Assembly: GCA_016713425.1 (NCBI GenBank)
Contig: JADJPE010000005.1
Coordinates: 5,437,532 to 5,501,531 of the forward strand
DNA length: 64,000 bases
Origin: Deltaproteobacteria bacterium
GTDB lineage: Bacteria > Myxococcota > Kuafuiibacteriia > Kuafuiibacteriales > Kuafuiibacteriaceae
Reading direction: 5' to 3'
Shown here: piece by piece, positions 14,068-37,560 of the stretch
Layout of the letters: the number at the start of each line of letters is the position of its first letter
Position numbering within the stretch: the stretch's first letter is position 1
The notes under the pieces: model-generated
Told to the model about the DNA's origin: nothing
The model's input: only the letters and a program-made list of their open reading frames with translations
The model's database searches: none
Position numbers and translations under genes: made by a program

Positions 14068-14134
14068 CGGCGATTGACGGCGATTGATCGCGATTGACGG
14101 CGATTCCTGATGGCGAGTGAGTGATGGCGAGTGG
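14068..14134. repeat. direct repeats with 10-bp phasing, (C/G)GCGATTGA(C/T) x4, followed by GATGGCGAGTG x2
   Basis: Visible in the intergenic sequence upstream of the 14292 ORF. Confidence 0.5.
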
Positions 14135-14291
14135 CAGCGGACAGTTTCCGAGCCGGTCGACACTCCTAGATGGCACACCGCGGCTTCCAACGGATCTTCG
14201 AACGAAGCTTTTGCTGTCGATCGCTCGCGGTCCGGGGTCTGCAAGAGGCCCGTCCAAGCACGCCACACTACGACCGATAGGGAGATTGCGC

Positions 14292-15461
14292 ATGAAGACA
14301 AGTTGGAGATCGACGGGACTCAGCCACCCGGGCCGTGCGGTCCGCACGGGCGCCTTTGTCGCGGCCATATTTAGTAGTCACTGCGGGACGGGCGCCGACG
14401 GATGGCCCGAGGCTGACGACGAGAACGTCGAAGAATCGCAGGACGGGCTGACCCTGAACGTGTCGAACTGGCACGATATCCCGGTGTTCACGCCGAACTC
14501 GACCGGATCGAACATGAACCAGCTCTTCGAGAAGACGCTGTACTCGGGCGCGCTTGCGAAGCAGGACATCAACATCTGGTACGCTCGGACAGCATTTGCG
14601 CGCACGTTTCCAAACGCCGGTCGTGTCAAATTGCCAGGCCTGACTCGCAATTATATCGGCGTGCCTTGGCAGCCACGCCCATTTATCAACTACGTAACGG
14701 GCCAAGGGTACCTCATCGAACTCGAAGTCGAGAGCACCGGCGCGGTCGTGCCGTTCGGCGTACTCGACGTGTACGGCATGGCCAACGGCGTCCATGGGCT
14801 CTACTCAACGGGTGCCATGAAGAACCCGAGCAGCCCGACGGCACCGGCGCCCGGTGCGACGGCACAGACTTGGGGCGGTCCACTGTGGCCCGAGACCTCG
14901 AAGTTTCCGCGGCTCCTGCCGCTCCTACCGAGCCAGATCCTGCTTCCAGACCGACTCGGCCAGGAGACACGCTTCACCGTTCCGTGGCCCGGCCGCGCCA
15001 CCGACAACTGGGCCGCCTTCATCGGCATGTCGAACGCGGTCAGTCGTGGGGCCGCGCCGGCCGCGTGCCAGCTCAAGTCGGAGGGAAGCATTGGCTTGCC
15101 CATCGCCTCTTCGACGGGGAACACGATTCACGCGCTTCGCAAGATCAACTTGGGCGGAAACATGGGTGTAAGGTGGGTGCTGATCTACTCCAACTACGAC
15201 GACGTCCAACGTCGAATCCGTAACGAAAGACAAGGCGGAATCGTGGAGTACTTTGGGATCGATCTTGCACCCGGCTCCGTTTGGCCTGGTGGCGGCCCTC
15301 CAACCTATGGCCGCGTACTCTACGGCCAGCAGGTCCTCGATGGGTCGGGCAAGATGGTGAACTGGAGTCTCGGACTATGGAATCGAACCGTTCCAAGAAC
15401 CAGAGGGGGCCGAATTTTCAACTGCTCGACCGTGACACCGGTTGTCGACGTCACCCTGTGA
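14292..15461 (+). CDS. hypothetical secreted protein or lipoprotein (no recognisable domain)
   Basis: The ATG at 14292 yields MKTSWRSTGLSHPGRAVRTGAFVAAIFSSHCGT..., which has signal-peptide character with a possible lipobox (SSHC). The 390-aa ORF has coding-like composition and ends convergent with the TonB-dependent receptor gene. Confidence 0.45.
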   Translation: MKTSWRSTGLSHPGRAVRTGAFVAAIFSSHCGTGADGWPEADDENVEESQDGLTLNVSNWHDIPVFTPNSTGSNMNQLFEKTLYSGALAKQDINIWYARTAFARTFPNAGRVKLPGLTRNYIGVPWQPRPFINYVTGQGYLIELEVESTGAVVPFGVLDVYGMANGVHGLYSTGAMKNPSSPTAPAPGATAQTWGGPLWPETSKFPRLLPLLPSQILLPDRLGQETRFTVPWPGRATDNWAAFIGMSNAVSRGAAPAACQLKSEGSIGLPIASSTGNTIHALRKINLGGNMGVRWVLIYSNYDDVQRRIRNERQGGIVEYFGIDLAPGSVWPGGGPPTYGRVLYGQQVLDGSGKMVNWSLGLWNRTVPRTRGGRIFNCSTVTPVVDVTL

Positions 15462-15555: not shown

Positions 15556-18111
15556 TCAGAGGTCCGTCGACATCGAGATCGTCCCGAAGACCCAGCAACC
15601 CGGCTGCGGATATGGAAATTGGGTACTCCCGCCCTGATACCACCGCGAGCCGAAGAGATTGTAGACCCAGAGCGAAACGCCAAGCCCTGGGAGGAATGCA
15701 TTCTCCGCCCGAACCCCGACATCCGCGAGCAACAGATCAGGCTCCGAATTCGCGACGTTATCGATACGATTCGGCCGGTTCTGTGAAACGCGCAGGATCG
15801 GCGACTGCCGAGCCCCCACGTGCCGAAGGTGTAGGCTGACCCAGGCGTCGTCGAGGATGCTGGAGATCGGATTCACGTCGACAATCAGATTCCCGTAGAA
15901 CATGGGAACATTCCACAAACGATGGTCACCATCTTGCGCGTTCACGATCGGGCGCGTCGACTGGCGATCGAAGGCCGTGTACTCCTCCACATCCGTGACG
16001 ACGAAGACGGTATAGTTCCCCCGAATGCGGTACCAATCTCCAATGAACGCAATCTCGTCTTCGAGGCTGACCGAATTCACAATGCCCGCGTTGTTGTAGT
16101 TCGACTCGCCGGCGGCCGCGTTCGGAATCCGGTAGATACCATCGCGAAGGTTGCTGTACGAAATATTGAGCGTATTGACGAAGCGTCGCTCGAGAAGACG
16201 CAACGTCGGTGTCAACGAGACCGATCGCATCCGTTCGGGTCGAAGGTTGTACGCTCCCGTGTAAGCCTGCAACGAGCTATATCGATACCAGTACGGACTA
16301 TCGACGAACGCATCGGAGTACGAAAGACTCACATCGAGCGCATCATTGGCCGTAACGATGACCGCTGCTCGCGGACTGAGAACCACGATGTCATCTTGCT
16401 CCGGCGGTTCGGAGGCGGCCGAACCATCGTTGTTTCGGCGCTCGCGATAGTCGAGCCGCCCGCCGATGTTGAGGAGAACGGGATCAGACAGGCGGTGTTT
16501 CAGTTGAACAAAGGCCGAATAGGTGCCCTCCCGCCCGGTGAACAACACGCGCTTGCGCGTTTCGTCGGCGAAGACATCGAAGTCGCCAACGCCCGAAGGG
16601 AGCGCACTGTCTTGCAGCCACCACACATCGAGCTGAGCACCGGCGAGGACAGTTCCACGACCGAACCCACCGAGATCGTAGTCATAGATGCCTTGTAGGA
16701 TCGCTTGATAAGCATCCTCCGTCCACGTGAGCCAGATCTGACTATTGTCGACCAGCGGCAGCGGCGGAGGGCCCATCGTATCGACATCCCATCCGGGCGG
16801 TGCCGTCCGGTTCCCGACCAGGACGCCCTCAACGCTCGAATGATCCCAAGCGGTCTTGACGGATATCTTCAACGACGTATTCAAACGACGCGACCACTCG
16901 GCGCCAAAGGACATCGTCCGCATCCCTAGCCCCGTCCCCACGCCGTTGAAGGTCCGGATCTTGTCGTAGTCGTAGAGATCGCCCGTTCGTCCACTCGATG
17001 AATAGGACTCGGTCAGCTTCTCGAAACGAGACTGCCCAAAGACGGACAGATCTCCCGCCCGAAGCCGCAGCCCTACATCATGATTGAGCGGAACTTTGAC
17101 CGCTCCCACGTACAGATTCCCGGAACGTGGTTGCTCAGTACCGAGGTCTTGAACCCAGTCGTCTGCGGCCGCGATCTGAACGCGTTCGCCCTTGGCTCGG
17201 TAGAGTTGGCCATAGAATACAACATCGCTCCACTCGTTGAATCGGCGCCCAAACGTGGCTTCGCCCAGCCATTGACCAAAGTTGCCCGTGCCGATCCGAA
17301 GCTTGGCCGCATTGATGTCGCCGCCGTCCTTGGTCACGATGTTGACCACGGCCGTCAACGCTGCGTTCCCATAAACTGAAGATCCGGGCCCACGCAGGAC
17401 CTCGATCTGCTTGACCTTGTCGGGATTGATGCTGATCCCGAACCCGGGCGCGGCTGTTCCATAGGCACGTTGGTTCAGTCGGTGCCCGTCGAGCATCACG
17501 AGAATCTTCTGCTGCGAGGACGCATAGATTCCGCGCATCGCGACGTTGTATTCGTTGTGGTCGATGATGCTCGTCATGCCTGGGACATAGGCGACGAGGA
17601 CATCCAACAGCGTTCGACCGCCGACGGCACGAATCATGTCGTCGGTAATGACCGTGACCGGGACCGGAGCCTCCCGTAACGGCTCACGCTGACCCGACGC
17701 CGTCTCCACCGAAATCGGGAGCTTCAGGAGCTCGCCCAGCGAGAGATCGACCAAGTCCTCCGCCTCATAGTTGGCGTCCTCGTCTTCGCCCTCATCCCCG
17801 CCTTCGCCTTCATCGCCGCCCTCGCCCGCAACCTCAACCTCGCCGCTGCCTCCGCGGACTCCGCTGCCTCCGCGGACTCCGCTCGCTTCGCGAGCGTCAC
17901 GAGCTTCACGAGCTTCGGCCCCTTCCCCAAGCGCCTGACTGCTTGTCTGGACCGAGCTGAGCGCAGGGGGCCCCTCGTCGCCCCAGGCAGCCTCCGGATA
18001 CGCCGAGACCGCGGGAACAAGAAGCAGGCACGCGCCGAGCCCCGCTCCGATCATCGGCCGAGGACAACGTCCGGACGTCGGCCTGGCCGCCCAATTATTC
18101 ACTCCGCGCAT
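15556..18111 (-). CDS. TonB-dependent outer-membrane receptor
   Basis: Signal peptide, an acidic Gly-rich low-complexity N-terminal extension and a TonB-box region (DLVDLSLGELLKLPISVETASGQ). The plug domain is recognisable (LLDVLVAYVPGMTSI...RGPGSSVYGNAALTAVVNIVTK) and is followed by a long barrel region. Confidence 0.85.
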   Translation of the reverse strand: MRGVNNWAARPTSGRCPRPMIGAGLGACLLLVPAVSAYPEAAWGDEGPPALSSVQTSSQALGEGAEAREARDAREASGVRGGSGVRGGSGEVEVAGEGGDEGEGGDEGEDEDANYEAEDLVDLSLGELLKLPISVETASGQREPLREAPVPVTVITDDMIRAVGGRTLLDVLVAYVPGMTSIIDHNEYNVAMRGIYASSQQKILVMLDGHRLNQRAYGTAAPGFGISINPDKVKQIEVLRGPGSSVYGNAALTAVVNIVTKDGGDINAAKLRIGTGNFGQWLGEATFGRRFNEWSDVVFYGQLYRAKGERVQIAAADDWVQDLGTEQPRSGNLYVGAVKVPLNHDVGLRLRAGDLSVFGQSRFEKLTESYSSSGRTGDLYDYDKIRTFNGVGTGLGMRTMSFGAEWSRRLNTSLKISVKTAWDHSSVEGVLVGNRTAPPGWDVDTMGPPPLPLVDNSQIWLTWTEDAYQAILQGIYDYDLGGFGRGTVLAGAQLDVWWLQDSALPSGVGDFDVFADETRKRVLFTGREGTYSAFVQLKHRLSDPVLLNIGGRLDYRERRNNDGSAASEPPEQDDIVVLSPRAAVIVTANDALDVSLSYSDAFVDSPYWYRYSSLQAYTGAYNLRPERMRSVSLTPTLRLLERRFVNTLNISYSNLRDGIYRIPNAAAGESNYNNAGIVNSVSLEDEIAFIGDWYRIRGNYTVFVVTDVEEYTAFDRQSTRPIVNAQDGDHRLWNVPMFYGNLIVDVNPISSILDDAWVSLHLRHVGARQSPILRVSQNRPNRIDNVANSEPDLLLADVGVRAENAFLPGLGVSLWVYNLFGSRWYQGGSTQFPYPQPGCWVFGTISMSTDL

Positions 18112-18146
18112 TCACGACCCCCACCTACAAAACTCACAGTCCGCAC

Positions 18147-18839
18147 CTACTCCACGACCTCGGCCAGGCGCAAAAAGGCCGCACCAAAGTCAGCACGAAT
18201 CCGCCGAGCAGCCGGCAGATTCACGAGAATTGCGGGATTCTTCCCCTTGGCCACCACGCCAATCGTTATGCCCTTCTCCACGTACGATCGCTGCCCCGCA
18301 AGCGTTGGGGCCTCGACCTTCGCGGCCGCGGCGAGAATCTCTTGCAGCGAATCGTCGAGACCCGGGCAGACATACACGACGGTTGCCTTCGCCTTCGCGA
18401 GCTCCACGTCCAACGGCGTCTTGAACGGAACCGACACGAAACGAACCTTCAAGTCACGGATCGTTATATTTCCAGCGCGCTGAAAGGCCCCCAACATCTC
18501 GGTGTACCGCTGTACCGAGGTGCTCGAGCTGGGTTCGTAGACGATCGCGACGACAATCTCCGAGAGTGATCGCTGCACGAGGTTTCGGTCATACCCGATC
18601 GCCTTCAGATGGATCGCAGCCTCCAGAGCTGCGTCAACCTCTCCGCGGGATTTCGCGACGGCCTGCAACGGGATCCAAACAAGAACCGCCGCGATCCCCA
18701 GCGCCACGGCGACGCCTCGCGTTCTCCGAACCCCCAACGACGTCACGTCTCCCCCGGGGCCATCCAGGCGCGCAAACGCCACCCCTTCCCGACCGCAAAG
18801 ACCTAACATGCGCTCAGGGCACCGTCGAGGATGCGCCAC
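18147..18839 (-). CDS. YfiR-like periplasmic protein (DUF4154 family); start probably internal, at the signal peptide VALGIAAVLVW
   Basis: The C-terminal half (TLAGQRSYVEKGITIGVVAKGKNPAILVNLPAARRIRADFGAAFLRLAEV) follows the YfiR/DUF4154 pattern (LLIGEQ..F...G.I.F.L.GNKVRFEIN...K..GL.IS..LL.L). A hydrophobic signal segment is present near the N-terminus. Confidence 0.6.
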   Translation of the reverse strand: MAHPRRCPERMLGLCGREGVAFARLDGPGGDVTSLGVRRTRGVAVALGIAAVLVWIPLQAVAKSRGEVDAALEAAIHLKAIGYDRNLVQRSLSEIVVAIVYEPSSSTSVQRYTEMLGAFQRAGNITIRDLKVRFVSVPFKTPLDVELAKAKATVVYVCPGLDDSLQEILAAAAKVEAPTLAGQRSYVEKGITIGVVAKGKNPAILVNLPAARRIRADFGAAFLRLAEVVE

Positions 18840-18999
18840 CGCATTGCGTCAGACCGCGCAAGGCAAGTCCTCGACGCGACCACCCACGTCGTGACATCGG
18901 GAGGGAAGGACACCCACCCACCTCGATCCCCAAAGCCCTACTGGTTGGGAATCCGTCGCCTAGCGTCTGCATTCGAGTTCGTGACAGATCAGACAAAGC

Positions 19000-19551
19000 G
19001 TGTCCAACACGAGCGGAGAAGAACGCTGGGTCGAGCTCGCAGAGCGCTACGTGCTGCGCTGCACTCCCGAGCTCTTTACAGCCTACGGAATGGCGATTGA
19101 AGGCAAGACTTCGTCGAGAGTCTCCTTCGACTCCGATTCTCTGGTCGGCGTCGCGGGATTCGTCGGCGATGTATGCGGTATTCTTTCGCTCCGCATCGAC
19201 GCTGCGGTTGTCGCCGCTTGCCACCCTATCCAAAAGGATGCCGCGCCCAATCGACGCATGCTCTTCGACTGGACAAGCGAGCTTGCGAATCAGCTCGTCG
19301 GGCGAATCAAGCTGCGGCTCGGGAACCACGGAATAAACTTCCGAGTGAGCGCTCCGATCGCCCTCGATGGTGCGCGAATGCGTTTCGTGGGTGCGAACGG
19401 GCACACATGCCGTGCCAGCTTCGACACCGGAACCGGCGATCTCGACGTGTGGGTCGACGCAGAACTCCGGAAGTCTGTCACATGGTCCGAAGCATTCTTC
19501 CGCGATGACCTATCCGATCCCAACGTCGAAGGCACGGTGATCTTCCTATGA
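19000..19551 (+). CDS. CheX/CheC-like phosphatase-fold protein (putative)
   Basis: A 183-aa ORF containing D-x3-E-x2-N-x21-P (DWTSELANQ...SAP), a near match to the CheC/CheX D/S-x3-E-x2-N-x22-P motif. Its stop overlaps the start of the downstream CheY-like gene. Confidence 0.45.
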   Translation: MSNTSGEERWVELAERYVLRCTPELFTAYGMAIEGKTSSRVSFDSDSLVGVAGFVGDVCGILSLRIDAAVVAACHPIQKDAAPNRRMLFDWTSELANQLVGRIKLRLGNHGINFRVSAPIALDGARMRFVGANGHTCRASFDTGTGDLDVWVDAELRKSVTWSEAFFRDDLSDPNVEGTVIFL

Positions 19552-19928
19552 CGACAAAGAAGGTCATGGTCGTCGACGACTCGCACACGGTGCAGGCGCT
19601 CGTCTCGTCGGCGTTTGCGAACCATGGATTCAGCGTCATCTGTGCGTCTGACGGCATGGACGCGATCGAGAAGTTGTCGATGCACGACGACGTGGTGCTC
19701 ATCTTCTGCGACGTCAACATGCCTCGGATGAGCGGCCTCGAGATGGTCAGTGAAGTCAAACGCATGCAGAAGTACGTCGATATTCCGGTGGTCATGCTTA
19801 CAACAGAAGGCCGTCCGGAGCTCATGCGCCGCGCGAAGGAGGCAGGCGCAAGTGCATGGATTGTCAAACCATTCAAACCGGAACAGCTCGTCGCGGTTGT
19901 GAAGAAGCTCGTTGAACGAACAGGCTAG
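19548..19928 (+). CDS. single-domain CheY-like response regulator
   Basis: A 126-aa receiver domain (VMVVDDSHTV...IFCDVNMPRMSGLE...VMLTTEG...KPF) with the acidic pocket and phospho-acceptor Asp intact. Confidence 0.85.
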   Translation: MTTKKVMVVDDSHTVQALVSSAFANHGFSVICASDGMDAIEKLSMHDDVVLIFCDVNMPRMSGLEMVSEVKRMQKYVDIPVVMLTTEGRPELMRRAKEAGASAWIVKPFKPEQLVAVVKKLVERTG

Positions 19929-19939
19929 ACGATACAGTC

Positions 19940-22069
19940 ATGAATGAGAACCGCCCCCCGCTCGTCCTACTCGTCGCGCCCACGCCCTCGCCGACCCTCG
20001 AGCGGGCCCTGGCTTCGACCGGACTCCGGGTCGTACACTCGAACGAACCGCGCGAAATCCTCGAGAAGCTCACGGAGCTCGACATTCGCCTGATCGTCGT
20101 GGACGGCCGACGATTCCCCCGAGGCGCCCAAGAAGTCGCCACGCTCCTCCATGAGGGCATGCCGGAGAACACGCTTCCAACCATCGTGGTCGTCGACGAC
20201 ATCGACGCTGCGATCGAGATCTTCGGATCTTCGTCCGCCGTCGAAATTCTCGCCGACGAGCGTCTGCTCGTTCACGCCGTCGGGCGCTCTCTGAAGACGC
20301 AGAAGGTTCACGAAGACCGACGACGGGCCGAGACGCGCTTCTCTCGCGCACGCCTCATGGCGGGTTTCGCGAGTTGGGAGTGGAGCCTCGAAACCAATCG
20401 GTTCGCCTGCGACCTCGAGCTCCTCGAGATCTTCGACTGCGGACCGATCCGCGGCTCCGTGCAAGTCGAAGACCTTCTCGGGCAAGTCCACCCGAGCGAC
20501 GCCGCGTTGGTTCGCACGGCTTTCGAGAATCGACGACCTCACCAGATCGAGTATCGCCTGTCGTCGACCAGCGCTCGCCCTATCCGTACGGTGCTTCAGG
20601 AAGCAGAGCTCGTCCAAGATCAGCCGAACGGCGAGGTCCGACTTCTCGGAACCGTTCTCGACATTTCGGAGCTGAAGGACGCCCAGACCCGCATCGCGCG
20701 TCTCGTGTACTTCGACAGCCTCACCGGGCTCCCGAATCGAGCCTATTTGAACGAGCATCTCGCACGAGTCATCGGGGCGGCCCAACGCAACCAGGAGCGG
20801 GTGGCCGTCATGGGGCTCGATCTGGACCTATTCAAACGCGTCAACGACACCCTCGGCCATGCGGCCGGGGATCTTCTGCTCCGAGAGGTCGCCAACCGCA
20901 TCAGTCGTGCGATTCGCCACGGGGACTCCGTTGTCGCGAGCGGTCATGGTTCGGTCGATCTTAAGCCAACAACCTCATCGACGACGGGCGTCGACCGTGA
21001 GAACACCGCCGTTCGTCTGGGCGGCGATGAGTTTATCATTATTCTGAATCGCCTCAACGCGCCCGAAGACGCAGAGGTGGTCGCACGAAGAATCGCCGAC
21101 CGGCTTTCAAAGTCTGTCGTCATCGAGGGCGCCGAAGTCTTCGTGAGTTGCAGTATCGGGATCTCGCTCTTTCCCGAGAACAGCGACTCGCCGGAGGAAC
21201 TTCTCAAGCAGTCCGATGCCGCAATGTACGAAGCCAAAGAAAAGGGGCGTAACACCTTTCAGTTCTTCTCCGCCTCGATCCACGAACGCGCCATGCGACG
21301 GGCCAAGCTCGAGAACGGCCTACGCGGTGCGCTCGAAAAGGATGAATTGCGCCTCGTATACCAACCCAAGGTGAAGCTTTCCACGGGCGAGACCGTCGGG
21401 GCGGAGGCATTGCTTCGTTGGACGCACCTCGGCGAGGCGATATCCCCCGGCGAATTCATTCCGGTCGCCGAAGATCGTGGCCTCATCGTGCCCATCGGAG
21501 AATGGGTGCTTCGCCACGCATGCGCCCAGATTCACGCTTGGACGCTTGCGGGGCGATCGATCCATGTCTCGATCAATGTGTCTTCGCGCCAATTTCGCGA
21601 GTCTGATTTCGTCGACAACGTGGCGCGCATCCTGCACGAGACAGGCGTCCGGCCCGACCTCGTGGAACTCGAGATCACCGAAACTTGCATCATGCAGACC
21701 TCAGAACGAGCGACTCGGACGTTGGAGCGCCTTAAGGCACTCGGGGTCACGATCGCCGTCGACGACTTCGGGACGGGCTACTCATCCCTCAGCTATCTGG
21801 GTCGGCTCCCGATCGATACGCTGAAGATCGACGTTGAATTCGTAAGAAGTGTCGTGACGAATGCATCCTGTCGCGCGATCACGTCGGCGATCATTGCGCT
21901 CGGGCGCACGCTCGGTCTTCAAATCGTCGCCGAGGGCGTCGAGTCAAAGAAGCAGATCGACTATCTCCTCCAGCAGGGCTGTTCCTTTGCGCAAGGATTC
22001 GCGTTCAGCCGCGGGATCCCACCCGAGGAGCTGCGCTCGGCGTATAAGGCTCAGCCGGAGGACGCATGA
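19940..22069 (+). CDS. REC-like-PAS-GGDEF-EAL protein (bifunctional c-di-GMP cyclase/phosphodiesterase candidate)
   Basis: The N-terminal receiver-like fold lacks the usual DD pair. A PAS region follows. The GGDEF motif is intact (VRLGGDEFIIILN). The EAL domain is intact (GAEALLRW...DDFGTGYSSLSYL...KID). Confidence 0.9.
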   Translation: MNENRPPLVLLVAPTPSPTLERALASTGLRVVHSNEPREILEKLTELDIRLIVVDGRRFPRGAQEVATLLHEGMPENTLPTIVVVDDIDAAIEIFGSSSAVEILADERLLVHAVGRSLKTQKVHEDRRRAETRFSRARLMAGFASWEWSLETNRFACDLELLEIFDCGPIRGSVQVEDLLGQVHPSDAALVRTAFENRRPHQIEYRLSSTSARPIRTVLQEAELVQDQPNGEVRLLGTVLDISELKDAQTRIARLVYFDSLTGLPNRAYLNEHLARVIGAAQRNQERVAVMGLDLDLFKRVNDTLGHAAGDLLLREVANRISRAIRHGDSVVASGHGSVDLKPTTSSTTGVDRENTAVRLGGDEFIIILNRLNAPEDAEVVARRIADRLSKSVVIEGAEVFVSCSIGISLFPENSDSPEELLKQSDAAMYEAKEKGRNTFQFFSASIHERAMRRAKLENGLRGALEKDELRLVYQPKVKLSTGETVGAEALLRWTHLGEAISPGEFIPVAEDRGLIVPIGEWVLRHACAQIHAWTLAGRSIHVSINVSSRQFRESDFVDNVARILHETGVRPDLVELEITETCIMQTSERATRTLERLKALGVTIAVDDFGTGYSSLSYLGRLPIDTLKIDVEFVRSVVTNASCRAITSAIIALGRTLGLQIVAEGVESKKQIDYLLQQGCSFAQGFAFSRGIPPEELRSAYKAQPEDA

Positions 22070-24261
22070 GGCCAAACGCGCACCGTCTGCGCTTCCATTC
22101 GGTCGGATGGAAAATCGCCGGTGCGACCGTAGTGGTGGTGACCGCCCTCGCCGCCATCGTGCACGTCGCCGTGAGCCGACGGCACCGTGAGTACATCAAG
22201 GCCGCCAAACAAGACGCGGCCAGGATGGTCATTCAATTGACCGCCGCTGGTCTATCAGCACCCGTTGTCTTTGGCGACACTCAGACCACGCAAGAACAAC
22301 TCGATCTTCTCGAGTCCAATGAAGATGTTCTCTACGCAGGCGCATGGCTGGTGAGCAACGACAAACCGCCCATGCCCACCGAACGGCTCGGCCTATACTA
22401 CCGGCAGGCCCGGACTCCGAGGCGCGGGCATCCTCCGGCATCGCCACGAGAACGCACCACGGAACAAGTCATGAAACCCGACCGCGTACCGGAGCAGATC
22501 GAGCAAAGCTACGGTCAGATGTTGATCTCGACGGCGCCGATCGTCGATCTGAGCGGGCGGACCGTCGGGGTCGTGCAAATCGCCTTCTCTTTGGCGCGCG
22601 AGCGCGCGGCCGATGAGGCAGGCGAACACCAGGCGATCATCTTTTCGGCAACTCTTGCAACTTTTCTTGCCTCGATCCTTCTCCTCTTCGCGCGTTTTGC
22701 AATCATAAGGCCACTACACATGCTTTCGAACGCCGCAAATCGCCTGGAGCGCGGCGAAAGGGCAACCATCGACGTGCAATCGAAGGACGAGATCGGCGAC
22801 CTCGCGACCGCTCTACGTGCGATGTCGAGCGCCGTGCAAGACCGGGAAGCGAAGCTCAAAGCGCGCAACAACGACATGCGATTGATCCTCGACAACGCCG
22901 GCGAGGGTTTCGTGACGGTCACATCTCACGGAAAGATGGCGGACGAACGTTCGAAGATGATCGACGAATGGTTCGGCCCACCCGCGGATGGCGCAACTTT
23001 CTTCGACTTCATAGCAACCGTCGCCGGACAAGAGATCGCCGACTGGATGACGCTCGGATGCGAAGCCCTTCACGATGGATTCCTGCCCCTTCAGGTCGCG
23101 ATCGACCAGCTTCCCAAGCAGTTCTCGCATGACGGGCGTTATTTCGCGCTCGAGTACCGCCCCATCTTGCAGGAAGATGGCACATTTCAGGCGATCTTGG
23201 TGGTCATCCGAAACATCACCGCAGAGGTCGAGTTCAAACGCTCGGAGGCGCTCCAACGAGAGGCCCTTGCCCTATTCCAACACTACGTGCGCAACCGCAT
23301 CGGTCTCATCGATTTCTTCCGCGAATCACGCACCCTCGTCGATGCGATCATCATGCACCGAAAAGACGAGCAAGCGATGCGCCGCAACATCCACACACTC
23401 AAGGGCAACGCCGCCTTGTTTGGCGTCGAACGCATCGCAGAGTATTGCCATCGCCTCGAGTCGAAGTGGTCCGAAGATGATCGGCACCCGAGCACATCCG
23501 ATCTTCAAGAGCTGTCGAATCGATGGCGATCGGTCGAGGAGGTCGTCAGCAACCTGGGCGCCGGCACGGAATCTGAGATTATCATGAGCCGAGAAGAACA
23601 CGCGCGCCTCCTCGCGGCCATTCGGTCACGGCAACCGCACGCCGAACTCGAATCCGCCCTGGGCGCTCTCGCCTACGAGCCGGCGGCGCGACGACTCGCC
23701 GCGATGCGGGAGCAAGTCCTGGCGCTCGGCGAGCGATACGGAAAGCCCGAGATTCAGGTCGAGATCAAGCCCACGCCCCTGCGACTTCCTTCTGCTCGTT
23801 GGGCAAGATTCTGGCCATCGTTGGTTCACATCTTTCGCAACGCGGTCGACCACGGTCTCGAAGACGCGGATGAACGAAGTCGGCTGGGGAAGCCGCCCCA
23901 CGGACGCATCGTGCTCTCGTTCGAGAATGTCGGAGACAAGGTCGTCTTCGCCTTCGAAGATGACGGCCGAGGCATCGCGTGGACCAAGCTCGCGGAGCGT
24001 GCCGCCGAGATCGGGCTCCAGACGACCACCAAGGCGGAACTTGAACAGGCTCTCTACTCGGGCGCGCTCTCCTCGAGGGGAGAGGTCACGGAGCTTTCGG
24101 GTCGAGGCATCGGAATTTCAGCCGTCAATGCGACCATTCAGTCCCTGGGGGGCACGATGTCCATTGCCAGCGAGAGTGGCCACGGAACATCCATCCGGTT
24201 CGCCTTTCCCAGCTCGATGCTGAAGGATGATGCACCGACTCAGGAATCCTCTGCCACCTGA
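22066..24261 (+). CDS. membrane sensor kinase with periplasmic domain-HAMP-PAS-Hpt-HATPase architecture (CheA-like phosphorylation on the Hpt domain; no DHp/H-box or CheW domain)
   Basis: Two TM segments flank a periplasmic domain of about 150 aa. HAMP and PAS follow, then an Hpt motif (HTLKGNAALFG). The HATPase has an N-box (IFRNAVDHG), G1 (DDGRGI) and G2 (GRGIGIS). The start overlaps the stop of the upstream gene. Confidence 0.8.
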   Translation: MRPNAHRLRFHSVGWKIAGATVVVVTALAAIVHVAVSRRHREYIKAAKQDAARMVIQLTAAGLSAPVVFGDTQTTQEQLDLLESNEDVLYAGAWLVSNDKPPMPTERLGLYYRQARTPRRGHPPASPRERTTEQVMKPDRVPEQIEQSYGQMLISTAPIVDLSGRTVGVVQIAFSLARERAADEAGEHQAIIFSATLATFLASILLLFARFAIIRPLHMLSNAANRLERGERATIDVQSKDEIGDLATALRAMSSAVQDREAKLKARNNDMRLILDNAGEGFVTVTSHGKMADERSKMIDEWFGPPADGATFFDFIATVAGQEIADWMTLGCEALHDGFLPLQVAIDQLPKQFSHDGRYFALEYRPILQEDGTFQAILVVIRNITAEVEFKRSEALQREALALFQHYVRNRIGLIDFFRESRTLVDAIIMHRKDEQAMRRNIHTLKGNAALFGVERIAEYCHRLESKWSEDDRHPSTSDLQELSNRWRSVEEVVSNLGAGTESEIIMSREEHARLLAAIRSRQPHAELESALGALAYEPAARRLAAMREQVLALGERYGKPEIQVEIKPTPLRLPSARWARFWPSLVHIFRNAVDHGLEDADERSRLGKPPHGRIVLSFENVGDKVVFAFEDDGRGIAWTKLAERAAEIGLQTTTKAELEQALYSGALSSRGEVTELSGRGIGISAVNATIQSLGGTMSIASESGHGTSIRFAFPSSMLKDDAPTQESSAT

Positions 24262-35600: not shown

Positions 35601-36693
35601 AACCCTGAGGCGAAAGCATAACTTCGACCGCCTCAGCCGCCGAACGAAGCGGGCGTCGGCGGCGAAGTCTCGCGTATGCGAAGATCCCAATCGGGATGAG
35701 GAAAAGGGCGACCGTCTGGGTCGTGGAGAGGATCAACGGGTCGTCGGTCGGATATCGGAACGCGAACTGCCGCTCCGGGTCGCCCCGCACCAGTTCAACC
35801 AGGAACCGGCCGAACGGATAGAGGACGAGATACGCGGCCGTTACCATGCCCGGTACCGTCTCGCGCTGGCGGTGAAGCCAAAGCAGCGTGAACCCGACGG
35901 CGAAACACATGACGACGGAGTAGAGCTGCGTCGGATGCACATGAGGCGTCCACGCGTCGGGCGCGATGCGGCCCTCGGTGGCGAAAACGAACTGCGCGAT
36001 GCTTCCGGGCGGGAACGATACCCCCACCGAGGCACTCGTCTCCCGCCCGTAACAGCATCCCGCCAAGAAGCAACCGATTCGACCGATGCCGTGGCTCAGC
36101 GCGACGCCAAGGACCAGGGCATCGAGCGACCCAAGCCCAAGCCCTCGTCGTCGCAGGTACAGCATCGTGAACACGAGCGCCGCGATCGCCCCACCGATGA
36201 ACGCCATACCGCCATCCCAGAAGGTAAGCGCCGCGAGCGGCGTCGCTTCGTAGTCGCTCCAGTTGACGACGACGTGAAGAAGGCGCGCACCGATCGCGGC
36301 CGCCAATCCGCCGTAGATCCAAATCGACAAGATCTGATCACTCGTCAGCCCTGCCCGCACGCCGAAGTGACGCTGCACGAGAAAGCAGACCATCATCCCG
36401 AGCACAACCATCAACCCCCACGATCTAAGGGGGATCGCAAAGTTCTCAGGCAGCCGGGCGGGCGTGATGAACGCCGATATGAGCACGAAGCTGACAGCCA
36501 CGAAACCGACGCCCATCACGAGCGCACGCCCGAGGTACGCGCGCCCGTGCTCGCGGCAGCCGTCGAAGACGATGAAGCCTCCGAGCAAGACGCTCACGAC
36601 GTACGCCACGAGGCGGAGCGTCTCTGGAGTGGAGGTCAGGGTAAGAAATGTCGGAAACACAGGCGAGCCGAAGCTAGCGCGCTCGGTCGCCAT
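35599..36693 (-). CDS. lgt: prolipoprotein diacylglyceryl transferase
   Basis: The Lgt signature (GRIGCFLAGCCYG) is present in a multi-TM protein of 364 aa. Confidence 0.9.
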   Translation of the reverse strand: MATERASFGSPVFPTFLTLTSTPETLRLVAYVVSVLLGGFIVFDGCREHGRAYLGRALVMGVGFVAVSFVLISAFITPARLPENFAIPLRSWGLMVVLGMMVCFLVQRHFGVRAGLTSDQILSIWIYGGLAAAIGARLLHVVVNWSDYEATPLAALTFWDGGMAFIGGAIAALVFTMLYLRRRGLGLGSLDALVLGVALSHGIGRIGCFLAGCCYGRETSASVGVSFPPGSIAQFVFATEGRIAPDAWTPHVHPTQLYSVVMCFAVGFTLLWLHRQRETVPGMVTAAYLVLYPFGRFLVELVRGDPERQFAFRYPTDDPLILSTTQTVALFLIPIGIFAYARLRRRRPLRSAAEAVEVMLSPQG

Positions 36694-36927
36694 CGTGAAG
36701 GGCGAAAGATCCGATCTGAGATGTCCGTCCCGCTCTCGGTTCTCGGTCTCGATCTCGGTCTCGATCTCGGCGTGAGCCGTTCATGGCGCATCGGCCGCGG
36801 CGAGCCCACCTTAAGGGCGCCGACCGTCCAGAGCCCATCCCGGTCTGGCGTGGGCGAGCGTGTGGTGCGAGGCCCCCCCGGCCCACGAATTGATTCGCCC
36901 CGACCGCTTGGGCATCATGGCGTCGAC

Positions 36928-37560
36928 ATGATCGCCCTCGCGTGGAACCTTTTCATCGACGAGTCCATCGCTTCACGAGCGATGCGCGGCTTTCGTCGCC
37001 CTGCTGTCCCTCGGCCGCTCCGCGTTGTGAGCCCCGTGGGTCTCCTCGGTCTCCTCGGTCTCCTCGGCCTCGGGGGGGGCGCGACCGGGTGCGAACAGGT
37101 GCCGAAGGAGGCCGCGCCGGTCGAGTCGGGCGACACGTTTAGATACGCGTTCGTCGTCAGCGCAGGCCCCTCATCGAGCCAGTATTTCGCGACGGTCAAC
37201 TTGACCGTCGAGGGTCCGAACGCTATCCGGCTCGACTCTGACCCCCCGCTCGGCCAGGACCCGGTCGTCGCGAACAAGGCCTTATCGGCGCGACGCCTCA
37301 TTCCCATGCATTCGCTCGGCATGTTGTGGCTTCCTACGCAACAGCGACACATCGGCGCACCGACCGATGTGGGCACAGTGCAAAGGGAGCGCGCGTTCGG
37401 CGGCTACGCGACCTACGTCATTCCGCAACCCGGGCAACTCACCAACGAACGGTACTACGACCAAGCAACGGGCTTCTTGGTCGGCTACCAAGTCAATGCA
37501 CCATCGGGTCCAACGACGTGCACACTGCTCGAGAGCTCGATCGAAGGCCTCTCGCGCTGA
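36928..37560 (+). CDS. putative lipoprotein (hypothetical)
   Basis: Signal peptide with a (GLL)n hydrophobic core and a lipobox-like GGATGC. Possible starts are 36928 or the later Met MRGFRRP at about 36988. The N-terminal 1 kb of the track ORF 35872..37560 is antisense to lgt and was rejected. Confidence 0.45.
   Translation: MIALAWNLFIDESIASRAMRGFRRPAVPRPLRVVSPVGLLGLLGLLGLGGGATGCEQVPKEAAPVESGDTFRYAFVVSAGPSSSQYFATVNLTVEGPNAIRLDSDPPLGQDPVVANKALSARRLIPMHSLGMLWLPTQQRHIGAPTDVGTVQRERAFGGYATYVIPQPGQLTNERYYDQATGFLVGYQVNAPSGPTTCTLLESSIEGLSR

Follow-up and report, generated by a model that had tools for sequence, protein, structure and literature searches.

Among described signalling systems, those closest to the locus reported here are YfiBNR and its counterparts (TpbB, AwsXRO and HmsCDE) of Pseudomonas, E. 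coli and Yersinia, in which the periplasmic DUF4154 protein YfiR is paired with the inner-membrane CHASE8-HAMP protein YfiN and an outer-membrane third partner, the lipoprotein YfiB. Malone et al. (2012) predicted a YfiR-YfiN[PAS] core to occur also with HPT, kinase, GGDEF-EAL and methyl-accepting chemotaxis protein (MCP) outputs, usually without YfiB, and mapped YfiR-insensitive mutations of YfiN to an 'AAVVF' patch that was proposed as the YfiR-binding site (PMC3375315). The kinase of the present locus also resembles CheA, and the survey of Berry et al. found that no CheA carries a sensor domain and that all of them contain Hpt, dimerisation, kinase and CheW domains (PMC10542144). Here we report on a six-gene island within a stretch of 64,000 nucleotides from a Myxococcota bacterium (assembly GCA_016713425.1, contig JADJPE010000005.1), which we refer to as the window. 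The island encodes a TonB-dependent receptor (TBDR), a YfiR-like protein, a CheX-like phosphatase, a CheY-like receiver (REC) protein, a GGDEF-EAL protein and a membrane-bound Hpt kinase.

By comparing related loci from genomes and metagenomes, we found that the conserved core of this arrangement is the TBDR, the YfiR-like protein and a CHASE8-Hpt kinase, usually accompanied by CheY and CheX, and that a GGDEF-EAL or REC-GGDEF protein is an optional output. Judging from the sequences, we consider the chances evenly balanced that the six genes constitute one trans-envelope signalling module that would operate on the YfiR-YfiN principle. The features of the island are as follows.

15556..18111, minus strand: TonB-dependent outer-membrane receptor, 851 aa (Pfam Plug 59 bits, TonB_dep_Rec_b-barrel 53 bits)
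18147..18839, minus strand: YfiR-like (DUF4154) periplasmic protein (Pfam DUF4154 24.8 bits, E 2.6e-5; gathering cut-off 24.9)
18840..18999, no strand: divergent intergenic region, 160 nt (from the coordinates of the open reading frames)
19000..19551, plus strand: CheX-type CheY-P phosphatase, 183 aa (Pfam CheX 32.1 bits against 27)
19548..19928, plus strand: CheY-like response regulator, single domain, 126 aa (Pfam Response_reg 91.8 bits; NCBIfam CheY 71.5 bits)
19940..22069, plus strand: pseudo-receiver/PAS-like/GGDEF/EAL protein, 709 aa (Pfam GGDEF 155 bits in two stretches, EAL 236 bits)
22066..24261, plus strand: membrane sensor kinase, 731 aa (Pfam CHASE8, weak; HAMP; PAS_4, weak; Hpt; HATPase_c)
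22174..22635, plus strand: periplasmic CHASE8-like sensor domain of the kinase (CHASE8 24.4 bits; family profile against DgcN)
23392..23406, plus strand: predicted phospho-accepting His of the Hpt domain, H443 in HTLKG (from the translation; invariant in the alignment)

All six open reading frames (ORFs) sit exactly at these coordinates within the window, and the tight operon with overlapping stops and starts that had been described in the original prediction was verified. Specifically, 4-nt ATGA overlaps join the CheX and REC genes (19548-19551) and the GGDEF-EAL and kinase genes (22066-22069), and 11 nt separate the REC gene from the GGDEF-EAL gene. The receptor and YfiR-like genes form a second operon, which is divergent from the CheX-to-kinase operon, and the spacer at 18840..18999 presumably holds the promoters of both. 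Scans for promoter and terminator consensus sequences and against Rfam found no sigma-70 consensus and no Rfam match in this spacer, and the same scans across the island returned nothing exceeding chance.

The kinase sensor and the YfiR-like protein

The kinase is predicted to contain a first transmembrane helix (TM1, residues ~15-36), a periplasmic CHASE8-like domain (37-~175), a second transmembrane helix followed by HAMP (177-277), a PAS domain (280-383), an Hpt domain with H443 (385-495), short helices (509-557) and a CheA-P4-type ATPase (563-719). Pfam matched HAMP at 36.9 bits and Hpt at 43.8 bits, and matched CHASE8 at 24.4 bits against a cut-off of 27. Across the kinase family, 11 of 16 sensor domains match CHASE8 at E<=0.01, with a best value of 5e-10. 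When the family sensor profile was compared by hhalign with the periplasmic domain of E. coli DgcN, the alignment (E 2e-4) placed APVVFGD (65-71) over AAVVFAD, and the motif A65-P66-V67-V68-F69 (nt 22258-22272) is the counterpart of 'AAVVF' in YfiN. As a control, E. coli DgcN/YfiN itself matched CHASE8 in Pfam at 116 bits, plus GGDEF. These profile comparisons assign the kinase sensor to CHASE8, which is the domain family of the YfiR-binding domain of YfiN. Assignment of the kinase's periplasmic domain to CHASE8, as in YfiN, strengthens the earlier idea that this domain is the target of the YfiR-like protein.

The catalytic portion of the kinase is of the CheA type. An AlphaFold2 model with a mean pLDDT of 83.5 features an alpha/beta periplasmic domain, a helical Hpt domain, three short helices and the ATPase, and Foldseek aligned the ATPase with CheA P4 structures at a TM score of ~0.8 and 30-34% identity. 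The NCBIfam model CheA_Halo matched residues 562-718 at 122 bits. Pfam found no HisKA, H-kinase_dim or CheW match in the kinase, which ends at residue 731 just after the ATPase, and no match to CheA P3 (H-kinase_dim) was obtained in residues 470-584 even at E<=10. In the P3 region the model has only the short helices at 509-557, and Foldseek comparison with CheA P3P4 (4XIV) gave a TM score of 0.61. A search for a canonical DHp H-box in the kinase, which would have counted against the original prediction, found none. Within the Hpt domain, residues H443, T444, K446 and G447 are invariant among 25 kinase homologues.

The PAS-Hpt core (22843-23565, kinase residues 260-500) also marks a large family of CheW-less CheA-type kinases that bear many different N-terminal sensors, with examples at loci L019, L020, L043, L051, L071 and L075 of the collection described below. 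With a threshold of E<=1e-30, searches recovered at least 643 cluster representatives (50% identity) of the PAS-Hpt-P4 family, and the number rises to 1547 with E<=1e-10. Outside Myxococcota the family extends to Planctomycetota (Rhodopirellula baltica), Kuenenia and Gemmatimonadaceae, and sources label its members merely 'Hpt domain-containing protein' or 'CheA'. The family further includes giant fusions of ~2000 aa that carry the PAS-Hpt-kinase core C-terminally, namely one at L032:5522-11677 and the protein P0144 of 2025 aa.

The YfiR-like protein carries a Sec-type signal peptide that ends ...PLQAVA/KSRGE (slash at the cleavage site), and NCBI annotates a 211-aa version of it as 'DUF4154 domain-containing protein'. 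The original prediction had called 18147-18839 a DUF4154 protein, and the Pfam match that bears on this call is borderline; it is secured by the orthologues, which match DUF4154 or YfiR. Four orthologues match DUF4154 over their full length at 28-52 bits (52.5 for the protein of L003, 28-41 for the three others), and BLASTP aligned the window protein along its whole length with the DUF4154 protein of L003 (158 residues, E 4e-12). A profile built from 11 YfiR-like family members had YfiR chains as all six of its best Protein Data Bank (PDB) matches; these are weak, at E ~0.4, and span the C-terminal half. The window sequence alone gave no match in a PDB search, and a word-indexed homologue search with it gave three. 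E. coli YfiR, included as a control, scored 108 bits for DUF4154 in Pfam. The mature protein has a single Cys, and therefore it has no YfiR-type disulfide pairs; the YfiR segment 'TECSVGSMFC' aligns to 'SYVEKGITIG'.

Conservation of the gene neighbourhood

We scanned genomes with a kinase alignment, using one genome per species, and recovered 79 loci, which are mostly from Myxococcota with some from Planctomycetota, Kuenenia and Gemmatimonadaceae. ORFs were called at the kinase loci and searched iteratively with the six window proteins, which resulted in 83 loci after de-duplication (designated by L and a number). The kinases were divided into 36 that share the N-terminal sensor type of the window and 47 others, and neighbours were counted within 6 kb. 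A TBDR gene was found near 21/36 kinases with the window-type sensor and 0/47 others (Fisher 2e-10), and a YfiR-like gene near 9/36 and 0/47, respectively (Fisher 3e-4), with the qualification that these locus counts are not phylogenetically independent. At the 83 genome loci, the YfiR-like gene always adjoins both the TBDR and the kinase.

The three genes occur in four arrangements. In the first, the order is kinase-receptor-YfiR-like, co-directional, with the pair downstream of the kinase. The second is also co-directional, with the pair upstream in the order YfiR-like-receptor-...-kinase (L015). The third has the pair divergent and upstream in the order receptor-YfiR-like (L095-L103), and the fourth is divergent as in the window (window and L021). 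In the co-directional loci the receptor, YfiR-like and kinase genes run end to end on one strand. All six genes of the island recur in L003, L008 and L027, in gene orders unlike that of the window.

A second scan, independent of the first, covered metagenome contigs and was seeded with a narrow alignment of YfiR-like proteins, which yielded 26 loci. The TBDR gene lies directly upstream of the YfiR-like gene in 20/26, and the other six have <=510 nt of upstream sequence. An Hpt kinase is encoded in 12/12 metagenome contigs that are long enough to show the kinase gene. Thus, in the test of neighbourhood conservation that had been suggested for the island, the TBDR/YfiR-like pair and the kinase operon proved co-conserved in both scans, and their linkage is strong.

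A CheX+REC pair lies beside 32/83 kinases, and CheX and/or CheY are common at the metagenome YfiR-like loci. GGDEF-EAL genes were found at 4/83 genome loci and 0/26 metagenome loci, and a REC-GGDEF protein is encoded at 7 of the 8 loci with GGDEF only. The original prediction envisaged a relay that controls turnover of cyclic di-GMP (c-di-GMP); these counts place the GGDEF-EAL gene outside the conserved core. The prediction holds in outline, but it overrated how central c-di-GMP is.

We also evaluated the modularity of the receptor/YfiR-like cassette through identity-matrix correlation of pairwise distances. Distances between YfiR-like proteins correlate with those between TBDRs at r 0.96; with the kinase core controlled for, the partial r is 0.91 (permutation p 2e-4). 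This correlation is suggestive rather than decisive, because adjacency alone can generate it. The window TBDR and YfiR-like protein have just 19-31% identity to all other pairs, while the window kinase is 56% identical to the L003 kinase in the core (and 48% in the periplasmic domain), which suggests that different TBDR/YfiR-like cassettes joined related kinase operons more than once. Next to related kinase operons, the two-gene cassette thus appears to have disappeared, been exchanged or been gained anew, which argues for functional coupling, and the tie of the YfiR-like protein to the receptor is no looser than its tie to the kinase.

Two other kinds of loci came to light in the genome scan. 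In a second receptor-linked type (L010, L033, L035, L040, L059, L063 and L067; e.g. L059:5324-11836), a related TBDR is followed by two conserved proteins without a Pfam match and by a kinase with an sCache_3_2-like sensor. One of the two proteins has ~205 aa ('KLLVYLHVAVKQRAFQ...') and the other ~340 aa with a Tat-like 'MALTRRxF' leader. The 'KLLVYLHVAVKQRAFQ...' protein was considered as a divergent DUF4154 protein and rejected, as hhalign gave a probability of 0.6% and Pfam no match. Separately, the region L004/L005:1-22295 encodes two Hpt family kinases, one with a CHASE8 sensor and the other beside a periplasmic-binding-protein gene, together with two CheX-CheY pairs, one REC-GGDEF protein and a di-haem peroxidase of the MauG type, and it adjoins a complete che operon (CheA, CheW, MCP, CheR, CheD, CheB).

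The genes that flank the island are unrelated to it and encode a glycosyltransferase, a protein without a Pfam match, an InlB-repeat protein and AddAB-like nucleases; the wider window contains housekeeping genes, including infB, nusA and ileS. A mobile or horizontally acquired island was ruled out, because its GC content is uniform with that of its surroundings and its neighbours are housekeeping genes. Two long ORFs of the window (14121-15461, plus strand, 446 aa; 35872-37560, plus strand, 562 aa) have no Pfam match, and the former, for which related loci show no conservation, is convergent with the 3' end of the receptor gene.

Relay components, proposed mechanism and alternatives

The receptor consists of a signal peptide, an acidic/Gly-rich insert of ~80 residues, a TonB-box-like motif 'LSLGELLKLPISVETAS', a plug and a barrel. 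Its best NCBIfam matches fall far under their cut-offs. The TonB-box-like motif at the N-terminus is common to 34 linked receptors, and Pfam, which matched only the plug and barrel, found no N-terminal STN signalling domain. The low-complexity insert ('GVRGGSGVRGGSGEVEVAGEGGDEGEGGDEGEDED...', receptor residues ~45-120, 17750-17990, minus strand) follows the signal peptide and precedes the TonB-box-like motif; it is unique to the window and absent from all 34 related receptors that were compared.

Within the plus-strand operon, the CheX-type protein contains the active-site motif D90-X3-E94-X2-N97 (nt 19267-19290). In the family, E94 is conserved in 42/42 proteins, N97 in 41/42 and G101 in 42/42, and the window protein aligns to the CheX/CheC-like structures 3H2D, 6VPW and 3IIC such that its E..N motif is in register. 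Whether this ORF has the phosphatase motif had been set as a test of the original prediction, and the D-X3-E-X2-N motif is both present and conserved. The CheY-like protein has the full canonical residue set, with D10, D11, D55 (nt 19710-19712), T85 and K107, and this stand-alone protein is predicted to be the sole canonical phospho-acceptor in the island.

In the GGDEF-EAL protein, the signature motifs DxDxFKxxND, GGDEF (at 361), EALLR (at 489) and ELEITE are intact, as are the further EAL motifs DDFGTGYSS (at 608), KID, EGVES and QG. Both domains therefore keep their catalytic motifs and are predicted to be active, and reading of the translation found no RxxD I-site. The Pfam match to GGDEF splits around residues 333-350 (window 20936-20992, residues ~333-351), a pattern that points to a short insertion just upstream of the GGDEF motif. 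A weak PAS_3 match (E 0.009) was obtained in the PAS region.

The N-terminus of this protein is the one domain for which the calls of the original prediction did not hold, since it had been called REC and is no more than a degenerate receiver-like domain. Pfam gave no REC match to it even at E<=10, and a word-indexed homologue search with it found no match. When aligned to its orthologues and to the CheY-like protein, the N-terminus appears receiver-like, with the acidic pair changed from DD to AP, Thr/Ser to V/D, and Lys to Asp with a 3-residue deletion, such that only D55 of the canonical receiver residues is kept. Comparison with the CheY-like protein by hhalign resulted in an E of 0.012 and a probability of 3.5%, and a single-sequence structural model (pLDDT 43.7) was too poor to judge the receiver fold. 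At L008 (16043-18199) and L027 (15645-17753), the receivers of the GGDEF-EAL proteins are otherwise canonical (DDDD acidic pocket, Thr, Lys), and the acceptor Asp is replaced by Glu ('LLEVMTP'); these receivers are predicted to be non-phosphorylatable by another route than the window protein. A complete receiver is found in 0/5 linked GGDEF-EAL proteins, for which phosphoryl acceptance is consequently not expected, and passages of PMC12632262 class degenerate domains of this kind as pseudo-receivers incapable of catalysing phosphotransfer.

Based on these features, we propose the following mechanism for the trans-envelope module. The YfiR-like protein would bind the CHASE8 domain around APVVF and hold the kinase in one signalling state. 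The receptor would substitute for the lipoprotein YfiB as the outer-membrane partner, and in its ligand-occupied or TonB-energised form it would capture or release the YfiR-like protein, thereby switching the kinase. After autophosphorylation on H443, the kinase would transfer the phosphoryl group to the CheY-like protein at D55, and the signal would be reset by CheX. Either CheY-P or free CheY would then act on the pseudo-receiver-PAS-GGDEF-EAL protein by contact and not by phosphotransfer, and this contact would shift the balance of c-di-GMP synthesis versus hydrolysis. The part of this scheme in which the TBDR itself is the outer-membrane sensor that captures or releases the YfiR-like protein, and feeds a receptor-fused CheW-less CheA-type kinase that works with CheY/CheX and no chemoreceptor array, is one that we put forward tentatively and hold to be rather doubtful. 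If true, it would represent TonB-dependent trans-envelope signalling distinct from sigma/anti-sigma cell-surface signalling.

Several observations weigh against this proposal. The kinase closest to that of the window is encoded at L002 (64% identity) in an operon of CheX, REC, GGDEF/EAL and kinase genes, and no TBDR or YfiR-like gene is present within 10 kb of it; therefore, the coupling either is not obligatory or can act in trans. The receptor N-terminus is of the ordinary TonB-box type, without a signalling domain. The window matches to DUF4154 and CHASE8 are both slightly under the Pfam cut-offs, and the Cys pairs that give YfiR/HmsC redox sensitivity are absent from the window YfiR-like protein. 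AVVF-like motifs are also present in family kinases without a YfiR-like neighbour, e.g. at L004 and L018, which indicates that the motif is a feature of CHASE8 and is not specific to binding. Distances between YfiR-like proteins do not follow those between kinase periplasmic domains when the kinase core is controlled for (partial r -0.08). Finally, the only ground for linking CheY to the GGDEF-EAL protein is their membership in one operon, in a minority of loci.

At L002, the position just upstream of CheX that corresponds to the divergent YfiR-like gene of the window is occupied by a gene for a 253-aa protein without a Pfam match (L002:5985-6746). This protein was considered as a divergent YfiR substitute and rejected, because it showed no resemblance to the YfiR-like protein.

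A different account of the same genes, which we regard as possible and by no means favoured, is that the ligand is imported and then sensed. Here the TBDR would be a plain transporter, and either the YfiR-like protein would be a co-receptor that presents the ligand to CHASE8 or CHASE8 would bind the ligand directly, with no sequestration at the outer membrane and with the same downstream relay as in our proposal. Analogues of such presentation are LuxP/LuxQ and TorT/TorS, and direct binding has analogues in PfeA/PfeS and the Bacteroides SusC-linked hybrid kinases; YfiR has also been reported to bind small molecules. A receptor whose plug, barrel and TonB-box-like N-terminus are normal, and which lacks a signalling extension, fits this account, as does the covariation of the TBDR and the YfiR-like protein as a unit, which would be expected of a transporter and its periplasmic binding partner. 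The second locus type likewise pairs related receptors and kinases with two wholly different periplasmic proteins, and that set fits a transporter with exchangeable periplasmic binding proteins. Loci in which receptor and kinase are joined by non-DUF4154 proteins are, however, also compatible with the sequestration of a YfiR-like protein by the receptor. What counts against import followed by sensing is that neither the island nor the related loci encode an ATP-binding cassette or other inner-membrane importer, and therefore the cluster looks dedicated to signalling and not to uptake. In addition, DUF4154 proteins are protein-binding repressors of CHASE8 sensors in every studied case (PMC3375315).

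A further alternative concerns the end of the relay, where the Hpt domain might phosphorylate the N-terminal receiver of the GGDEF-EAL protein in parallel to CheY and thereby switch the enzyme. WspE, which phosphorylates WspR, is an analogue. The ~120 N-terminal residues do align to receivers, with the D55 position kept in the window, L002 and L003; the GGDEF-EAL gene lies in the same operon between the CheY-like and kinase genes; and a REC-GGDEF protein is encoded beside the kinase at seven other loci. Nevertheless, we consider this alternative improbable. The domain has no Response_reg match at E<=10, has lost the acidic pair, Thr/Ser and Lys, and reaches an hhalign probability of only 3.5%, and the replacement of the acceptor by Glu in L008/L027, together with the count of 0/5 complete receivers, stands against it, as does the inability to catalyse phosphotransfer that is ascribed to pseudo-receivers in the passages of PMC12632262 cited above. 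Because the receiver is degenerate, direct phosphotransfer to the GGDEF-EAL protein is unlikely. Of the two acceptors named in the original prediction, the CheY-like protein thus stands as the canonical one, whereas the GGDEF-EAL protein probably does not accept phosphoryl groups.

Least probable of all, and very unlikely in our estimation, is that the receptor/YfiR-like operon is an independent uptake or envelope unit without a signalling tie to the kinase operon: the divergent transcription of the two units in the window, the lack of the pair in the closest relative L002 and the partly different evolutionary histories of pair and kinase would suit this view, but it is disfavoured by the linkage counts from genomes and metagenomes, with adjacency in 9 further genome loci and 12/12 long metagenome contigs in four arrangements and receptors found only beside kinases with the window-type sensor (21/36 versus 0/47), and DUF4154 and CHASE8 are the known interacting pair of Yfi.

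Comparison with known systems

Our search of the open-access literature found no description of this gene combination. The original prediction that it is not a described system needs qualifying in view of the Malone modules and of an NCBIfam triad, both of which were already known. The triad consists of NF053590 (TOL_0244 TBDR), NF053591 (TOL_0243 YfiR-like) and NF053592 (YfiR-like-associated sensor histidine kinase), which are named after Thalassolituus loci and match the island in having a receptor, a YfiR-like protein and a sensor kinase as gene neighbours. The window receptor scores 72.6 against a cut-off of 645, the kinase 32.3 against 194, and the YfiR-like protein has no match against a cut-off of 125, with its orthologues at 15-29 for NF053591. 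The window proteins are not members of these families, and we found no published experiment on the triad in the open-access literature.

The modules predicted by Malone et al. have the same recombined core of YfiR and YfiN sensor, e.g. the Thauera 'YfiN' with an HPT output (PMC3375315). Their survey differs in that it includes no Myxococcota, no TBDR partner, no CheA-type catalytic domain and no CheY/CheX (PMC3375315).

With regard to chemotaxis proteins, the island kinase is like CheA in its Hpt (P1) domain with HTLKGN, its CheA P4 fold at 30-34% identity, and its CheY-like and CheX partners. It is unlike CheA in having no CheW-like P5 and no detectable H-kinase_dim, and in having its own transmembrane sensor, HAMP and PAS domains. 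The kinase falls outside CheA on two counts, and it belongs to the large unnamed PAS-Hpt-P4 family. The Wsp system (WspA-F, WspR) shares with the island a CheA-type kinase that is tied to a c-di-GMP enzyme, but the input of the island is a fused periplasmic sensor, and its c-di-GMP enzyme combines a pseudo-receiver with an EAL domain. No MCP, CheW or CheR homologues were found in the 64-kb window, and a CheB query produced a single match there, through its receiver domain, to the CheY-like ORF (E 3.9e-8). A canonical Wsp-like chemosensory pathway was rejected on the lack of MCP, CheW and CheR. The description of the relay as chemotaxis-style therefore applies to the catalytic core of the kinase, CheY and CheX, and does not extend to MCP, CheW or CheR.

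As in FecA/FecR/FecI and PfeA/PfeSR, a TBDR is genetically tied to trans-envelope signalling in the island. The island has no STN domain, no gene for an anti-sigma or extracytoplasmic function (ECF) sigma factor and no DNA-binding regulator, and its relay consists instead of the YfiR-like protein and the CheA-type kinase. Because the receptor does not have an STN domain, it is not a FecA-type transducer.

The closest likeness remains that to YfiBNR, with which the island shares a periplasmic DUF4154 protein, an inner-membrane CHASE8-HAMP protein, the hydrophobic AxVVF motif, a third partner in the outer membrane and c-di-GMP as the eventual end. It differs in that the sensor output is a PAS-Hpt-CheA-type ATPase, whereas GGDEF is fused to the sensor in the diguanylate cyclase YfiN, and in that the outer-membrane partner is a TBDR and not the Pal/OmpA-like lipoprotein YfiB, of which phmmer with the E. 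coli YfiB query found no homologue in the 64-kb window. The island is also without the YfiR Cys pairs, and it reaches c-di-GMP indirectly, via a separate GGDEF-EAL protein. If our proposal is true, the Yfi principle, whereby a periplasmic repressor moves between a sensor in the inner membrane and a partner in the outer membrane, would gain two new ends: a TBDR for the input and, for the output, a CheA-type Hpt kinase together with CheY/CheX. It would also mean that a widely conserved CheA-like kinase senses via its own transmembrane domain and not via chemoreceptors and CheW, which contradicts the usual definition of CheA. Myxococcota are rich in orphan CheY-like proteins, and the island offers candidates for the way in which this phylum links c-di-GMP and other outputs to cues from the envelope or from nutrients. 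Taken together, the comparisons indicate that Yfi-type logic is already known and that what is new is an own-sensor, CheW-less CheA-type kinase joined to CheY/CheX; the points that stand out are the habitual partnership of a TBDR with a YfiR-like protein and a CheA-type kinase that is receptor-fused, has no CheW and works with CheY/CheX.

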